From the UHGV virus genome UHGV-0079336: DNA of 12,264 bases; one strand, 5' to 3'. The position numbers were made by a program, and so were the translations under genes. Below the pieces are notes generated by a model, which was given only the letters and a program-made list of their open reading frames with translations, searched no databases and was not told where the DNA came from. Of the stretch, positions 503 through 9,658 are shown in pieces; the stretch's first letter is position 1, and each line of letters begins with the position of its first letter. Source of the DNA: a virus.

Positions 503-532
503 TTGACAATTGTTACTGAGTCTTGTAAGAAT
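503..532 (+). promoter_or_regulatory. candidate sigma70 promoter upstream of NACHT gene
   Basis: TTGACA at 503-508, then TG-n-AAGAAT (524-532) at 18-bp spacing. Hexamer match only. Confidence 0.25.
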
Positions 533-986
533 GCACCACGTATTGGTTAATGAATGTGGTGAAAAAATGGATGAGTTTCTTGCGACTATTATTAATAGCA
601 CAGTAGGAAAAGCTGCGGAAAAAATAACAGAAGTATTGCTCTCTAAACCTTGGGCTAGGGACCTAGATGAAGGCAAGGTTATACTCGAACAATTAAATGA
701 TCCCCTCGGAAGAGAAAATTATTTAAGAAAGCATGTGCTACCATCTCTGAAAATGAGAACTTTGCACAACGCTGATTATGATATTTTTTTAGATGATATT
801 TATTATCCGTTAACTGTTGAGGTGGCATCTAATAAAGACAAGGTCGTTATAAAAGATGGGATCACTTTACCATTTCATGGTATTGTAAATATAGTCGGTA
901 TAGCAGGGCAAGGGAAAAGTACTATTTTACGCAAGTTGTTTAGCGAGGAAATAAAAAAATCAGAACGGATGCCTTTTTTTTATTGA
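510..986 (+). CDS. NACHT/STAND NTPase, N-terminal fragment with Walker A (frameshifted gene, part 1)
   Basis: Translation contains GIAGQGKST (P-loop). The frame ends at TGA 984-986 directly after a T8 run (974-981). True start is uncertain: TTG 510, ATG 531 or ATG 567 (GGTGA upstream). Confidence 0.7.
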   Translation: MLLSLVRMHHVLVNECGEKMDEFLATIINSTVGKAAEKITEVLLSKPWARDLDEGKVILEQLNDPLGRENYLRKHVLPSLKMRTLHNADYDIFLDDIYYPLTVEVASNKDKVVIKDGITLPFHGIVNIVGIAGQGKSTILRKLFSEEIKKSERMPFFY

Positions 987-996
987 ATTAAGAAGG

Positions 997-2463
997 GTGA
1001 AGAATGCAAATATTATTGCTTATCTGGCAGACATTCTTAATTCATTTGGTGTGGGGTGTTCAGAGGATAGCTTGAAAATATTACTGCAATCCCAAAGAGT
1101 CGTTTTAATGTTGGATGGATTTGATGAGGTTAAACATGAAGAGCGAACTATGATGATGAATGAAATAAAAAACATTCATTATCATTTTAACACACCAATT
1201 ATCGCAACAACGAGACCAAATACAGATATATGTTATACTACTGATGTGTATAATATTTTTATAGATAAGCTAAATATTTCTGATAAGATTTGTATTCTTC
1301 ATTCTTTATCGAAAAATGACAGATTCTCAAGTAGTGATGCCTCGTTTAAAGTCTTGGCGGATTTACTATGTGATAAAGAAGAACTTGAGGGAACTATTTG
1401 CAATCCAATTTTAGTTACTCTTTTGTATTATTGTTATCCTTATATGAATGATATTCCAAATAATATAATAGAGTTTTATCGAAGCCTCTTTGACACCTTA
1501 TATGCAAGGCATGATAAAATAAAAGTATATACGCGCGAGAAAAAATCAAACATTATTGGTGAAAAAGCTAAATTGTGTTTTTCAGCTATTTGCTATAACG
1601 CACTGATTGAGGAGAAATTTGAGTTTTGGGGAGAGGAGTTGCTTAGATATGCTGAAGATGCTATTGAAACAGAAGGTTATCTTAAAGAAGATGCATCAAA
1701 CTTTATAGATGATCTTATTGAGATAACTTGCCTTATCCAACCTGAGGGAAATAATAGGTATGTTTTTCTGCATAAATCAGTGCAAGAATTTTATGCTGCT
1801 TTTGCGGTAGCAAATTTACCGATTGAGTATAAAAAAGATATATACGAAAATCTTATGGTGGCTATTAAATGCTCTGAACAGTTAGATAACTTCATGTTGT
1901 TTTTACATTCACTAGATTCCAAAGCATTTATAGATGAAATCACAATAAAAGCTTCTCGTGATATGGGGGTTGTAGATGTCGCAAACATGACGAGAGAGAG
2001 AGTTGAGAATGTTTTTGACTCGGCACTAAGTAGAGTATTTATCAAAGGCAACTCTACATCGAATGACTCAGTGATTTCGCTTCATTACGACTTTGTATTA
2101 GGTTCGCTCTTAGGTATTGATATTCTACCTATAATGTCTGGAAAAGAACGAGTTCCTATGACAGAAATTGATTTGATTTTTGACGGCCTTTTTTCATGCA
2201 CGATGGATAAGGGTGAGTTAAACTTATACAAATTTGAAGTTAAAAAACAAAAAAATAATATTGATACTGATGTTCAGACTGATGATTATTTATTTCCCTT
2301 GGTGGATTATCTTAAGGTCAGGGGGGTTTATGGTTTGATGCTGGATACTTACCATCAGACAATTAAGGATTTTTATGATAGATATTATCAACCAGCTTAT
2401 GATTCGAATCTTCGAAGAACACTAGCAATGGGAAGAAATTTCAAGTTAAAGAAAAATAATTAA
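997..2463 (+). CDS. NACHT/STAND NTPase, C-terminal fragment with Walker B (frameshifted gene, part 2)
   Basis: Translation has VVLMLDGFDEV (Walker B hhhhDGhDE), IIATTRP, CNPILVTLL and FLHKSVQEFYAAF in the order typical of NACHT domains. The frame is +1 relative to part 1 and open back to 955. Confidence 0.75.
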   Translation: MKNANIIAYLADILNSFGVGCSEDSLKILLQSQRVVLMLDGFDEVKHEERTMMMNEIKNIHYHFNTPIIATTRPNTDICYTTDVYNIFIDKLNISDKICILHSLSKNDRFSSSDASFKVLADLLCDKEELEGTICNPILVTLLYYCYPYMNDIPNNIIEFYRSLFDTLYARHDKIKVYTREKKSNIIGEKAKLCFSAICYNALIEEKFEFWGEELLRYAEDAIETEGYLKEDASNFIDDLIEITCLIQPEGNNRYVFLHKSVQEFYAAFAVANLPIEYKKDIYENLMVAIKCSEQLDNFMLFLHSLDSKAFIDEITIKASRDMGVVDVANMTRERVENVFDSALSRVFIKGNSTSNDSVISLHYDFVLGSLLGIDILPIMSGKERVPMTEIDLIFDGLFSCTMDKGELNLYKFEVKKQKNNIDTDVQTDDYLFPLVDYLKVRGVYGLMLDTYHQTIKDFYDRYYQPAYDSNLRRTLAMGRNFKLKKNN

Positions 2464-2542: not shown

Positions 2543-2658
2543 CCGGAGCCTGAACAACTCCGGTGACTTCTGCGCTAAACGGGGACGTTTATGCGCACAT
2601 ACAATCCAACCTATCTTCTCCATTCACAGATGCAGAAATGCACCTACGCTTTTTTACA
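2543..2658 (+). repeat. structured ~115-bp element, copy 1 (three hairpins then T6); candidate small RNA or cis-regulatory RNA
   Basis: Hairpin 1 CCGGAG/CTCCGG (2543-2563). Hairpin 2 is a 10-bp stem with GGGA loop (2572-2596). Hairpin 3 is TGCA-GAAA-TGCA (2631-2642). T6 at 2650-2655. Possible promoter TTGAAA 2507-2512 with AATATT 2531-2536. Homologous to 4950-5066. Confidence 0.45.
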
Positions 2659-2897
2659 TTCGGTGTTTTACTTCGACAGCCAGAATTGGGAGTCTCTATT
2701 CGTCTGGCGGCTAAAGGTGATATGGAAATCGTTATGTTTTGGCCTGAGGTAGTTGTAACTGTTGTAGCAGCTATGGCTGTGATCATCATGGTGTCCATTT
2801 ACTGGGGTTGACGACATGATTTATCCGGCGCTATATTCTGTGCGTTGCCGCAAAATCGGCACACGGGATTGGCGTCCCGGGATACTACTCAACGCAT

Positions 2898-2918
2898 ACC
2901 GCGTTAAGCGGTTTTTTT
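2898..2918 (+). terminator. weak intrinsic terminator candidate
   Basis: ACCGC-GTTAA-GCGGT hairpin followed by T7 (2912-2918). Confidence 0.3.
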
Positions 2919-3018
2919 GTGCGCTAAGCACGGCTATGCCCAAATTATGGTGGGCTGTGTGAGGGCTTCTTCGGAAGCGCCGGGTTTGAGTAGCCGGTTA
3001 CGCCAACCTTACACAGTT

Positions 3019-3049
3019 CACCACCAGTCGATTGGCGTCGTTGGTGGTG
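3019..3049 (+). promoter_or_regulatory. 8-bp inverted repeat upstream of Bro-N gene (possible operator or RNA hairpin)
   Basis: CACCACCA (3019-3026) and TGGTGGTG (3042-3049) separated by 15 nt, about 25 nt before the start at 3075. Confidence 0.25.
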
Positions 3050-3074: not shown

Positions 3075-3683
3075 ATGACTACTCAATTAGCATTCCACAA
3101 AACGACGTTTACCCCGATTTGCCACAATAACAGAATTTGGCTTACTGCCACTGAAGTTGGTTTAGCACTGGAATATGCGGACGATAAAGCAGTTCAGCGC
3201 ATTTACTCTCGGCACTCAGATGAATTCACAGATATGATGACAAGGGTGGTCAAAGTGACCACCCCTCGTGGAATGCAGGAGTCTCGAGTATTTAGCCTTC
3301 GCGGAGCCCATTTGATCGCCATGTTTGCTCGTACTCCTGTGGCCAAAGAATTCCGCCGCTGGGTGCTGGATATTCTCGATCGAGAAGTTCAACAATCACC
3401 AATCACAAAACAATTCACTGATAACGAACTTTGCACACTCGCCTGGTTATGGCGAGCAAGTGATACGATGTTAATCGCCTGCCAGAACGTTACTCCACTT
3501 CTTCAGGTTGCGGAGCACCGCGAAGCCGGTCGCTTTACTTCTATCAGTCAGGAATATCCCCTGATACTCAGCAAGGCGCGAGCAATCCTTGCCAGAGAAA
3601 CGGCGCATGTAAAATTCCAACCGTGGCAGGATGATAAGTGGAGCAGGGTATTGCCACATTTGCGTCAGGCTAGATTGCAATAG
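3075..3683 (+). CDS. Bro-N/AntA-like antirepressor family protein (202 aa)
   Basis: GAGGTGA RBS at 3064-3070. N-terminal region (…NNRIWLTATEVGLALEYADDKAVQRIYSRHSDEF…) resembles the Bro-N/antirepressor N-terminal domain pattern. Assignment from recalled family pattern only. Confidence 0.6.
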   Translation: MTTQLAFHKTTFTPICHNNRIWLTATEVGLALEYADDKAVQRIYSRHSDEFTDMMTRVVKVTTPRGMQESRVFSLRGAHLIAMFARTPVAKEFRRWVLDILDREVQQSPITKQFTDNELCTLAWLWRASDTMLIACQNVTPLLQVAEHREAGRFTSISQEYPLILSKARAILARETAHVKFQPWQDDKWSRVLPHLRQARLQ

Positions 3684-3845
3684 TTTTACATATTAGGCGC
3701 TGAATGGATGCAAGCAGGTAGCGCACTGGGCGGCAATGATTAAGGCTTCAGATAAGCCAAGTAAGCACTGAAGAAGTTCAATGTAATCAAATTCTCTTTA
3801 TGGTATTTTCGTTAGACCCCTCATGCACTTAGATGGAAATTTGAA

Positions 3846-4046
3846 ATGATGTATTCAGTGACTTTCGATGATACTGGACGAGTAGAAGATATTGAACTAG
3901 ATCGTGAGGTTAGAGCCGGAGATAGACTCTCTCTTAATATTGATGGTCTTGATGGTATTTATATAGTCATGACTGTTAGCGGCCCTATCTATGAAAATGT
4001 TTGTATGCCAATGAATATCCGGGTTCAAAAGTATTGGAAGCAATGA
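3846..4046 (+). CDS. hypothetical protein (66 aa)
   Basis: ATG with weak GGAAA upstream; acidic small protein; followed immediately by a strong hairpin. Confidence 0.4.
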   Translation: MMYSVTFDDTGRVEDIELDREVRAGDRLSLNIDGLDGIYIVMTVSGPIYENVCMPMNIRVQKYWKQ

Positions 4047-4051
4047 TGTAT

Positions 4052-4080
4052 AATCCCCTCAGATGCTCGAGGGGATTTTT
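4052..4080 (+). terminator. hairpin with T-run (terminator or attenuator); 3' arm overlaps the RBS of the next gene
   Basis: AATCCCCTC (4052-4060) pairs with GAGGGGATT (4069-4077) around an 8-nt loop; T5 at 4076-4080; ATG at 4081. Confidence 0.45.
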
Positions 4081-4308
4081 ATGTCAGACTGGAACATTGC
4101 AGCAAAACCGCAAAAGGAACGTGACAAGGTAAGCGTTGGCCTTGCGCTTTCAGGTGTAGCGTATAAAGAACGCCCGAACATGCCGGTTATAGCTAAACAG
4201 GTAGCTAGAGAACAACTTGGGCATCTCCGCGAGTACTTAATGGATCGCGTCCGTTATTACCGTAAGCAGAGCATCACCTTCCAAAAGCATCCGAACCACG
4301 CTACATAG
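4081..4308 (+). CDS. hypothetical protein (75 aa)
   Basis: ATG 4081 with GAGGGGA at 4069-4075. The tracked ORF start at 4063 lies in the hairpin loop and is less likely. Backbone-like GC. Confidence 0.5.
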   Translation: MSDWNIAAKPQKERDKVSVGLALSGVAYKERPNMPVIAKQVAREQLGHLREYLMDRVRYYRKQSITFQKHPNHAT

Positions 4309-4323
4309 AAATGGCAGACTTAA

Positions 4324-4911
4324 ATGCAAGAAAATGAAAAGCAAGAGCAGCATGAAACTGAACCTCAGGATTTAGATTTTCCAGCAGAATTTGACTCTCT
4401 GATTAATGCAAATGGAAAGATAACACCTGCATTGCTAACGGTAGTTAACCGGTATTTTTTATATTTTTCATTCTTTGAATCACTTCTTTTGGGGTGTTCT
4501 GGAAGTCAGGGGAAGAGTTCGAAATACGCAGCGAAATTGTTGGAATTCAAATTAGTTGATCTTGACGTTCTTAAGCGAACATACTTCTTTTTTGCAGACC
4601 GTTATCTGGCAGATGTAGTGAAGTTTGAAAACCTATGTGGTGATTTAGAGCATACATCGCAGAAGGCTAGGGATGAAAAAATTAAGGCCATGCAATTAAA
4701 GACAAACGACCCTGAAATTCAGTTAGGTGTTTGTATTTTTGTTTGTTTCAGGTTGCGAAACAACCTTTTTCATGGACCAAAATGGCGTTATTTGCTTGAT
4801 GGGCAAGAGGATTTGCTCTTAATTGCCGGAAATTTTATACATTCTATTCTATTACAGGTGCCTAGTAGAGATGGCTGGGAATTCAAGAATATTTTAACTT
4901 CTACTGATTAG
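4324..4911 (+). CDS. hypothetical AT-rich cargo protein (195 aa) with HEPN-like Rx4H motif; putative RNase/abortive-infection toxin
   Basis: ORF in an AT-rich island. Contains …CFRLRNNLFHGPKW… (R-N-x-x-x-H spacing as in HEPN RNases). Poor SD, so start is uncertain. Function is inferred from the motif only. Confidence 0.5.
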   Translation: MQENEKQEQHETEPQDLDFPAEFDSLINANGKITPALLTVVNRYFLYFSFFESLLLGCSGSQGKSSKYAAKLLEFKLVDLDVLKRTYFFFADRYLADVVKFENLCGDLEHTSQKARDEKIKAMQLKTNDPEIQLGVCIFVCFRLRNNLFHGPKWRYLLDGQEDLLLIAGNFIHSILLQVPSRDGWEFKNILTSTD

Positions 4912-4949
4912 CTTTGATTTTCCATAATCAACCCGCCATAATCATGTCA

Positions 4950-5066
4950 TCGGAGCCTGAACAACTCCGGTGACTTCTGCGCTTTGAGGGGACTCAAAGT
5001 GCAAACGACAATCAGAACACCTTTCAACCAGTCACAGATGCAGAAATGCACCTGCGATTTTTTGCA
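4950..5066 (+). repeat. structured ~115-bp element, copy 2; candidate small RNA or cis-regulatory RNA just upstream of ninB
   Basis: Hairpin 1 at 4950-4970. Hairpin 2 GCGCTTTGAG-GGGA-CTCAAAGTGC at 4979-5002. TGCA-GAAA-TGCA at 5039-5050. T6 at 5058-5063. Possible promoter TTGATT 4914-4919 with CATAAT 4937-4942. Confidence 0.45.
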
Positions 5067-5096
5067 TCCAACGTTTGACCTCTGCGGAGGTGAAGC

Positions 5097-5552
5097 GTGA
5101 ACCTCCCACAAGACGGCATCAAATTACATCGCGGTAACTTCACCGCTATCGGTAAGCAGATCCAGCCTTATCTGGAGGACGGAAAATGCTTTCGCATGGT
5201 GCTTAAACCGTGGCGCGAGAGACGCAGTCTTTCCCAGAATGCACTCAGCCACATGTGGTACAGCGAAATCAGTGAGTACCTCATCAGCAGGGGGAAATCG
5301 TTCGCTACTGCAGCATGGGTAAAAGATGCTCTCAAACACACATACCTCGGTTATGAAACCAAGGACCTGGTTGATGTCGTAACCGGCGAAATCACTACGA
5401 TCCAGTCGTTACGCCATACCTCCGATCTTGATACCGGAGAGATGTATGTCTTCCTGTGTAAGGTTGAAGCCTGGGCGATGAATATTGGCTGCCACCTGAC
5501 TATTCCGCAGAGCTGCGAGTTCCAGCTGCTGCGCGACAAGCAGGAGGCGTAA
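5097..5552 (+). CDS. ninB: NinB-family recombination protein (YbcN-like, 151 aa)
   Basis: GTG start with GGAGG at 5086-5090. Translation ([15 protein letters not shown]…[18 protein letters not shown]…) matches the DLP12 YbcN/NinB family as recalled. Confidence 0.9.
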
Positions 5553-8794: not shown

Positions 8795-9658
8795 ATGGAA
8801 AGAGGTGTGGTATTTAGTGCATGCGAATTACTTAAAACCGAGGATGGAAAAGGCATCCGTACAGGTAAATGGATTAGTCAATTAGAAATAAACTATCTAT
8901 GTCTTTATTGGGATAAACTAGTTTCACCCACTAATAATATTATACATACAGCATTAAATAACGAGGATGAATTAGAAAAATGTGGATTGCTAACCAGACC
9001 TGTATATAGACATCATGGTTGTTTTGATGGCCAATATATGGCTGATTTTTATGCTGAAACTCATGCCAAAACAATAGATATACTTAGGCATGCGGATTCT
9101 TCTGTCGATTGGCGCATGCATTTTTTAAGTGACCAAATAAACTTGGTGCCTGAATTATCTAGAACCTCAGAAGTGATACGTTTTGAGCTAGCAAATTTAT
9201 TACCCGTTCCCACAGAAGATGTGCACCTACATGATATTCTTGATTTCAAGGAAAGAAGAAAACCTGAATTAATCGCTTTACATGAATATCTTGATGAGCT
9301 TTACTTGGAAATAAAACGTTCTGGTGATATCAATCTTCAGAAAGCAAAAGCTCTTTCTAATCTTAAACAAGCAATAAAGGATATTGAACGCTTAAATTGT
9401 GAAGTGTGGAAAAGTCCAATAAAATTTAGCATCTCCACTTCCTTTGAGTTCGATTTTTCACAAATATTTAGTCTGGCGGGAACTGTTTTATCTATGTCAG
9501 TAGATTATCCTTATAATGTTATTGGAGGGGTAAGTAGTTTTGCTTATTTTTTGGGAGGATGCATAAAAATAAAGCCACAATTTCAACAAGTGTTATCATT
9601 AGGTAATGATAAATTAGTTTACATAAGCAAAGGAAAATCGGAGGGTATTATTTCCTGA
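8795..9658 (+). CDS. hypothetical moron protein (287 aa), AT-rich cargo between Rz and HNH/terminase
   Basis: Strong RBS AGGAGA at 8784-8789. Long ORF in an AT-rich island with its own promoter-like hexamers. No P-loop or other motif recognised. Confidence 0.7.
   Translation: MERGVVFSACELLKTEDGKGIRTGKWISQLEINYLCLYWDKLVSPTNNIIHTALNNEDELEKCGLLTRPVYRHHGCFDGQYMADFYAETHAKTIDILRHADSSVDWRMHFLSDQINLVPELSRTSEVIRFELANLLPVPTEDVHLHDILDFKERRKPELIALHEYLDELYLEIKRSGDINLQKAKALSNLKQAIKDIERLNCEVWKSPIKFSISTSFEFDFSQIFSLAGTVLSMSVDYPYNVIGGVSSFAYFLGGCIKIKPQFQQVLSLGNDKLVYISKGKSEGIIS

Follow-up and report, generated by a model that had tools for sequence, protein, structure and literature searches.

A conserved cargo gene of a lambdoid Escherichia coli prophage encodes a candidate solo HEPN-type ribonuclease

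We analysed ORF195, an open reading frame (ORF) for a protein of 195 amino acids (aa) carried by UHGV virus genome UHGV-0079336, within a stretch of 12,264 nucleotides (nt) read on one strand and hereafter called the window. Based on a motif conserved throughout its family, a helical structural model and a solitary genomic context, we propose that ORF195 encodes a solo HEPN-type ribonuclease (RNase) acting in abortive infection, a reading that we put at a probability of roughly one half. Membership of the HEPN superfamily as such appears probable, and ORF195 and its relatives most likely constitute a new and so far uncurated family of prophage cargo genes encoding solo HEPN-like proteins. The original prediction, made from the DNA sequence of the window, of a self-contained HEPN defence or toxin gene is partly supported by these features, but no profile search links the family to HEPN.

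Conservation of the ORF195 family

Attention had been drawn to ORF195 by the heptapeptide RNNLFHG, in which an arginine is followed by an asparagine and, after a four-residue spacer, by a histidine; the motif is present as described (Table 1). Its occurrence in one sequence is no evidence, because such motifs are frequent in shuffled sequences and in other proteins of the window: R-x4-6-H arose in 39% of shuffles of the ORF195 protein, R-x4-H in 15% and R[NDH]x3H in 2.3%, and 11 of the 16 other proteins encoded in the window contain R-x4-6-H. The weight of the motif rests on its invariance across the family, as judged from the alignments.

Close homologs (54-99% identity) fall into about 40 clusters, every one labelled 'hypothetical', from Escherichia, Klebsiella, Citrobacter, Enterobacter and Salmonella, and the block CFRLRNNLFHGPKW is invariant among 33 of these close homologs. 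An exhaustive profile search recovered 546 representative clusters (E<=1e-3, clustered at 50% identity), mostly of single-domain proteins of 160-175 aa, with a core family size of about 165 aa. Their sources include Colwellia, Vibrio, Serratia, Raoultella, Cupriavidus, Brevundimonas and Rhodobacterales, as well as metagenome-assembled genomes of Thermodesulfovibrionales and Dehalococcoidia and many metagenomes. Query and relatives share a single library match, phrog_27260 (function unknown), which was the only one obtained with ORF195 and was matched by all members of a deep alignment of 132 sequences (A2). Apart from three close homologs, the sequences in this alignment are 17-32% identical to the query, yet E52, R93, R145, N147 and K153 occur in all 132, and R143, H150 and G151 in 131 each. 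Y94 (129/132), Q161 (125/132) and N146 (121/132, with histidine at that position in six more) are nearly as constant. The arginine and histidine singled out by the original prediction are therefore conserved in homologs, and invariant polar residues within so divergent and small a protein form, at the level of sequence, the pattern of an enzyme active site.

Predicted structure

HEPN proteins are defined by a four-helix up-down core that often carries an insert between helices 2 and 3, and by a conserved Rx4-6H motif whose arginine is directly followed by a polar residue, in most cases N, D or H; often there is also an upstream conserved acidic residue near the motif, typically as Ex3[KR] in helix-2 (PMC3710099). 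The active site is composite, arising via dimerisation, and the enzymes are metal-independent RNases that leave 2',3'-cyclic phosphate ends (PMC3710099). ORF195 has both the arginine-histidine pair at a four-residue spacing and the polar residue at position 146, at the frequencies given above.

An AlphaFold model computed from a shallow alignment was mediocre (predicted local distance difference test, pLDDT, 80), whereas the 132-sequence alignment yielded an all-alpha model with pLDDT 93.1 and a predicted template modelling score (pTM) of 0.87. DSSP assigns helices to residues 19-26, 35-56, 62-74, 80-96, 98-105, 113-125, 130-150, 152-156 and 162-177. In this predicted model, helix 130-150 stops at H150 and is followed by a short distorted turn (152-156), a loop and the last long helix (162-177), which would place the motif at the end of the penultimate core helix, the position of the HEPN signature. 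HEPN reference structures recur among the best structural matches of both models. The predicted model agrees with the structural expectation in being helical and in motif placement. A Foldseek search of the PDB gave no significant match.

Genomic context and distribution

The window is a piece of a lambdoid E. coli prophage. Positions 3800-5200 (1.4 kb queried) are 99.8% identical to E. coli strain LR-50, in which O/P/ren are followed, in this order, by cargo, ybcN-ninE-ybcO-rusA-ylcG-Q, lysis genes and HNH/terminase. ORF195 is an AT-rich accessory gene in the cargo slot that follows the replication genes and precedes the nin region. Its N-terminus, MQEN, is kept in homologs and therefore supports the assigned start codon; its Shine-Dalgarno sequence is weak. 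The ORF itself, its foreign composition (GC content estimated by eye at about 35%) and the normal composition of the 75-aa gene upstream had all been recognised correctly: we measured 36.9% GC for ORF195 (32.7% at third codon positions, GC3) against 48.9% for the upstream gene, 51.5% for ybcN (GC3 63.2%) and 49.3% for the nin-to-lysis block. Its assignment to a hotspot upstream of ninB is approximately right as to position; however, the gene 3' of ORF195 is YbcN (phage 82 orf151), a NinB-position gene whose match to Pfam NinB (22.0 bits) lies below the cut-off of 23.8.

Homologs occupy the same slot, flanked by the replication genes on one side and the ninB/ybcN/DUF1367-NinG-Q block on the other, in K. 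oxytoca, K. pneumoniae, Citrobacter, Salmonella, Enterobacter and a second E. coli allele, with varying neighbours. A K. oxytoca relative (P0044, 32% identity; L023 4001-4546 and L024 973-1518) lies between the Q antiterminator and holin genes, which indicates that the family moves between moron hotspots; the Q-holin slot is also the place of the Shiga toxin genes in Stx phages. More distant relatives were found on the opposite strand within a prophage head-tail (structural) module and on rhizobial conjugative plasmids. In Cupriavidus numazuensis, the family member P0255 divergently adjoins a gene for AbiJ (AbiJ_NTD4 plus Abi_C HEPN), near dnaG. A further member, P0218 (L013 693-7602), lies next to a Mu-type transposase amid more than 12 small unrelated ORFs on the same strand, among them BglII-like endonuclease, CxxCxxCC, Ada Zn-binding and PLD-like proteins, an array that resembles an integron cassette array or transposon cargo.

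Table 1 Positions of ORF195, its conserved residues and other elements discussed in the text (window coordinates unless a locus is named)
Feature	Position	Strand	Remarks
ORF195	4324..4911	+	ATG start; 195 aa (stop included); phrog_27260 superfamily, uncurated; predicted solo HEPN-like
E52 codon	4477..4479	+	Glutamate invariant (132/132), towards the C-terminal end of helix 35-56; possible counterpart of the acidic residue upstream in HEPN sites
R93-Y94 codons	4600..4605	+	132/132 and 129/132; helix 80-96
Block R143 to K153 (R-L-R-N-N-L-F-H-G-P-K)	4750..4782	+	Family conservation; end of helix 130-150 by DSSP
RNNLFHG	4756-4776	+	Residues 145-151; motif in ORF195
Putative catalytic codons	R145 4756-4758, N146 4759-4761, H150 4771-4773	+	ORF195
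Hairpin with T-run (AATCCCCTC...GAGGGGATT TTTATG)	4052..4077	+	Conserved, TATAAT before it; 5' boundary of the theta/ORF195 unit
Theta-like gene (DNA polymerase III theta / HolE / Hot-like)	4082..4308	+	75 aa, 48.9% GC; ends 15 nt before ORF195
Junction element, copy 1 of direct repeat	2544..2674	+	82-91% identical to copy 2
Junction element, copy 2 of direct repeat	4914..5082	+	Just 3' of ORF195; promoter-like site, inverted repeat, orf33 region, hairpin
ybcN (phage 82 orf151)	5097-5552		NinB-position gene
NACHT/STAND NTPase gene	510-2463	+	Split into ORFs 510-986 and 997-2463
IsrK	2846-2918	+	Rfam, 58.7 bits
C4 antisense RNA	2943-3028	+	Rfam, 74.8 bits
Bro-N/P22AR antirepressor gene	3075-3683		Just downstream of IsrK and C4
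DUF6236 gene	8795-9658	+	287 aa; Pfam 2e-31; phrog_23128 (unknown function)
AbiJ/P0255 gene pair, locus L016	402-1325 and 1380-1874	- and +	Cupriavidus numazuensis; two HEPN-type genes side by side (P0255 putatively)

The theta-like neighbour and the question of a partner

A DNA alignment of E. coli, K. oxytoca and K. pneumoniae revealed a conserved unit consisting of a hairpin, the theta-like gene, ORF195 and the junction element. The 3' arm of the hairpin contains, and so sequesters, the Shine-Dalgarno sequence of the theta-like gene. In Enterobacter the latter is called directly upstream of, and overlapping, the ORF195 homolog, and the two also overlap in K. oxytoca. The gene is intact in the window and in locus L005. 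However, frameshifts disrupt it in E. coli LR-50 and K. oxytoca (L002), K. pneumoniae (L009) has a copy with stop codons and deletions, and Citrobacter, Salmonella and E. coli B1S11 lack it, while ORF195 or its homolog is intact in all of these loci. The theta-like gene has thus decayed independently at least three times, and, since ORF195 remains intact where this neighbour is a pseudogene or missing, the theta-like protein is no obligatory antitoxin and was ruled out in that role. The persistence of ORF195 beside a decaying neighbour further argues for purifying selection on ORF195 itself.

No nucleotidyltransferase (MNT) gene was found in about 20 loci examined, and no conserved neighbour of the family in any context examined. 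ORF195 had been described as a single-gene cargo; it usually travels with the hairpin and the theta-like gene, but this neighbour is dispensable and a pseudogene in several lineages.

Proposed function and competing explanations

We propose that ORF195 is a small, stand-alone, all-helical and metal-independent RNase with an active site around R145, N146 and H150, in which E52, R93, R143, N147, K153 and Q161 would probably assist catalysis. Judging from other HEPN proteins, dimerisation probably completes the site. The most likely role would be abortive infection or superinfection exclusion: the protein would be produced inactive and turned on by a component of an invading phage, after which it would cut host tRNA, rRNA or mRNA, leaving the infected cell unable to produce phage. 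No dedicated antitoxin would be required. The presence of the NACHT gene in the same hotspot of the window also counts in favour of defence.

Several observations weigh against this proposal. Pfam, PADLOC and NCBIfam returned no match for ORF195 and no consistent match among the 132 aligned members, and searches of all PDB sequences with profiles A1 and A2 and with a C-terminal, catalytic-half sub-profile (A5) returned no HEPN match. UniRef names P0255 an 'Apea-like HEPN domain-containing protein', but this label was not reproduced by the Pfam Apea model, which gave no match at E<=10; nor did the Pfam and PADLOC ApeA models match the query, P0255 or any of the 132 members. When A2 was compared by hhalign with an Abi_C (AbiJ HEPN) alignment of 121 sequences, built from the AbiJ neighbour of P0255, the probability was 0.1-0.9% and the motifs were not aligned; single-sequence comparison of the family with Abi_C was also negative. 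Profile comparisons of the kind suggested with the original prediction, run against Pfam, PADLOC, NCBIfam, PDB sequences and the Abi_C alignment, thus failed to support it. In addition, E52 is followed by S-L-L-L rather than by x3[KR] and sits at the C-terminal end of its helix. The gene is rare, being found in five of 5,426 complete E. coli genomes and truncated by IS3 in one of them, and a tblastn search of 50,697 phage records gave no match. A consensus scan for a private promoter found six promoter-like sites against 5.7 expected from shuffled sequence. Expression of ORF195 may therefore be limited to delayed-early transcription under N antitermination, as would suit a part in the phage's own lytic programme. 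Because HEPN families are mutually undetectable by sequence (PMC3710099), the negative sequence searches lower the probability of HEPN membership but do not refute it.

A few stray matches were treated as noise, namely DzbB (6e-5) and CARF_HEPN (0.007), each a single match among the 132 members, and bacterioferritin, an RNase A tandem and S1P lyase in the PDB profile searches. The truncated copy, in E. coli 2018-05-2CC (L025 2290-3901), is 100% identical to ORF195 over codons 63-195; it has lost its 5' end to an IS3-family insertion and lies in a degraded prophage remnant.

A first rival is an all-helical enzyme or ligand-binding protein unrelated to HEPN, in which the E/R/R/N/H/K/Q cluster would act on something other than RNA, for example a nucleotide signal or cofactor, or which would bind a host or phage protein. 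We regard this as possible but doubtful, since R-N-x3-H-G matches the HEPN signature exactly, also in closing the penultimate helix, since HEPN structures recur among the matches of both models, and since failure to detect one HEPN family from another is the rule. An HEPN-type RNase could also serve the lytic programme of the phage itself, through host shut-off, competition with co-resident prophages at induction, or counter-defence; N antitermination would then allow its expression from pR among the delayed-early genes of the nin region. ORF195 does lie in the pR delayed-early unit and shares its strand with O/P and ybcN/Q; promoter signals upstream of it do not exceed chance, and with a terminator-like hairpin before the theta/ORF195 unit its expression in a repressed lysogen is not evident. 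The relative just downstream of Q lies in the late operon. We nevertheless consider a lytic role unlikely: a strongly foreign composition, rarity and a patchy distribution of alleles characterise morons that are under selection in the lysogen, the characterised solo HEPN proteins of prophages, HepS and Tha, are defences, and relatives of ORF195 are found outside phages too, next to AbiJ and on plasmids.

Many minimal HEPN proteins are toxins of toxin-antitoxin pairs and are accompanied by MNT, which lends some weight to a toxin whose antitoxin would be the theta-like protein or a trans-acting factor encoded elsewhere. The theta-like gene lies directly upstream, separated by a short gap or overlapping, and shares the 5' hairpin boundary with ORF195. 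Its decay or loss beside intact ORF195 homologs, its status as a recognised DNA polymerase III theta homolog, and the lack of MNT or any other conserved neighbour in the contexts examined make such a pair very improbable. As for a spurious or decaying ORF without function, the AT-richness, weak Shine-Dalgarno sequence, rarity in E. coli and IS3 truncation in one strain would be in keeping with it; this explanation is effectively refuted by the 546 clusters with full-length matches, the patterned conservation, the high AlphaFold confidence and the intactness of the gene next to a decaying neighbour.

Comparison with known HEPN systems

The solo HEPN RNase that we favour has a close functional counterpart in HepS (STM14_3211; PDB 9OIJ/9OIK) of the Salmonella prophage Gifsy-1, an abortive-infection protein without a partner, encoded in a lambdoid prophage's accessory region, close to its replication and antirepressor genes (PMC13043305). 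HepS forms a tetramer and is non-toxic on overexpression; once triggered by the tail-tip protein J, it cuts tRNAs in their anticodon loops (PMC13043305). ORF195 likewise stands alone, without a conserved partner, in an accessory region of a lambdoid prophage, but its motif is located at residues 145-150, in contrast to 100-105 in HepS, a protein of at least 202 aa. The family profiles matched no PDB chain as a HepS homolog at E<=10, provided that 9OIJ was among the chains searched, and on these sequence comparisons ORF195 appears to be analogous, not detectably homologous, to HepS. No obvious hepS was found in the LT2 Gifsy-1 record, and unannotated 216-aa genes in the ORF195 slot of Citrobacter and Klebsiella prophages had no PDB match.

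Relative to the minimal HEPN proteins of HEPN-MNT systems (TTHA0636/1wwp, HI0074/1jog, AF0298/2hsb and SO_3166-type toxins 7ae2/8xdj), ORF195 differs in having no MNT partner in the contexts examined, in being 30-60 residues longer, additional helices lying between the first helix and the catalytic one, and in the signature RxRNNxxHGxK, which is specific to its family. Unlike the HEPN proteins of lactococcal-type Abi systems (AbiJ/Abi_C, AbiD/F, AbiU2 and AbiA's C-terminal domain), it has no N-terminal sensor domain, and the Abi models of Pfam and PADLOC do not match the family. ApeA (PF18739) and Tha of a Staphylococcus aureus prophage are single-gene HEPN defences activated on infection. ApeA is a much larger protein than ORF195, and the Apea-like name of one family member has no model match behind it even at permissive thresholds.

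Junction repeat and other elements of the window

The junction element 3' of ORF195 matches the region upstream of orf151 (ybcN) in phage 82, including a putative promoter, a 'regulator-binding' inverted repeat and orf33. Its promoter-like sequence, TTGATT-17-CATAAT (4914-4942), is the annotated putative -35/-10 of phage 82, and it carries the inverted repeat CGGAGCCTGAACAACTCCGG and a terminator-like hairpin with T6 (5039-5062). About 130 nt of the element (4951-5082) are directly repeated at 2544-2674, and both copies hold the hairpin CGGAGCCTGAACAACTCCGG and the terminator-like GCAGAAATGCACCT(G/A)CG with a T-run. The two copies bracket a 2.4-kb isrK/C4/ant/orf66/theta/ORF195 module and resemble a recombination scar, which suggests that cargo has been stacked by recombination at the junction element.

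Within this module, Rfam identified IsrK and C4 antisense RNA just upstream of the antirepressor gene, together with a promoter-like site (2808-2837) and a terminator-like hairpin (2898-2912). The arrangement is of the small-RNA-controlled antirepressor type familiar from Gifsy-1 and P1.

Two further AT-rich islands were observed in the window. The first (31.6% GC) contains the NACHT/STAND NTPase gene, which is split into two ORFs in different frames, with Walker A (GQGKST) at the end of the upstream ORF and Walker B (LMLDGFDEV) at the start of the downstream one; the break coincides with homopolymer runs around 955-982. This DNA recurs (99.4-99.8% identical) in nine other E. coli genomes, mostly one base shorter (2,200 against 2,201 nt) and annotated 'NACHT domain-containing protein', so that the copy in the window is either a frameshifted defence-type gene or the product of a sequencing error. 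The other island (33.9% GC) encodes a DUF6236 protein between the Rz/spanin gene and the HNH/small-terminase genes, where LR-50 has DUF6979 and a small hypothetical protein.

Implications

Solo prophage HEPN nucleases such as HepS and Tha have lately proved to be abortive-infection systems that are complete in themselves and detect the structural proteins of rival phages, and the idea of a solo HEPN protein in ORF195 is accordingly plausible rather than startling to a specialist. If it is true, ORF195 adds to these systems a family unrelated by sequence, which spans prophages of Enterobacteriaceae, marine gammaproteobacteria, alpha- and betaproteobacteria, rhizobial plasmids and metagenomes. 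Since no Pfam, NCBIfam or PADLOC model covers this family, it is missed by defence-finding pipelines. The protein is small and confidently predicted, with clear targets for mutation in R145, H150, E52 and K153, and is therefore easy to test. Should the HEPN reading fail, the conserved polar cluster would still mark an enzyme recurrently mobilised by temperate phages. We think it rather unlikely that ORF195 is an unrecognised all-helical enzyme with a non-RNA substrate at the E52/R93-Y94/R143/R145-N146-N147/H150-G151/K153/Q161 site, or an HEPN protein used in counter-defence or as an inter-prophage weapon; if either were true, the family would represent a new functional class of lambdoid moron moving between the replication-nin, Q-holin and structural-module slots.
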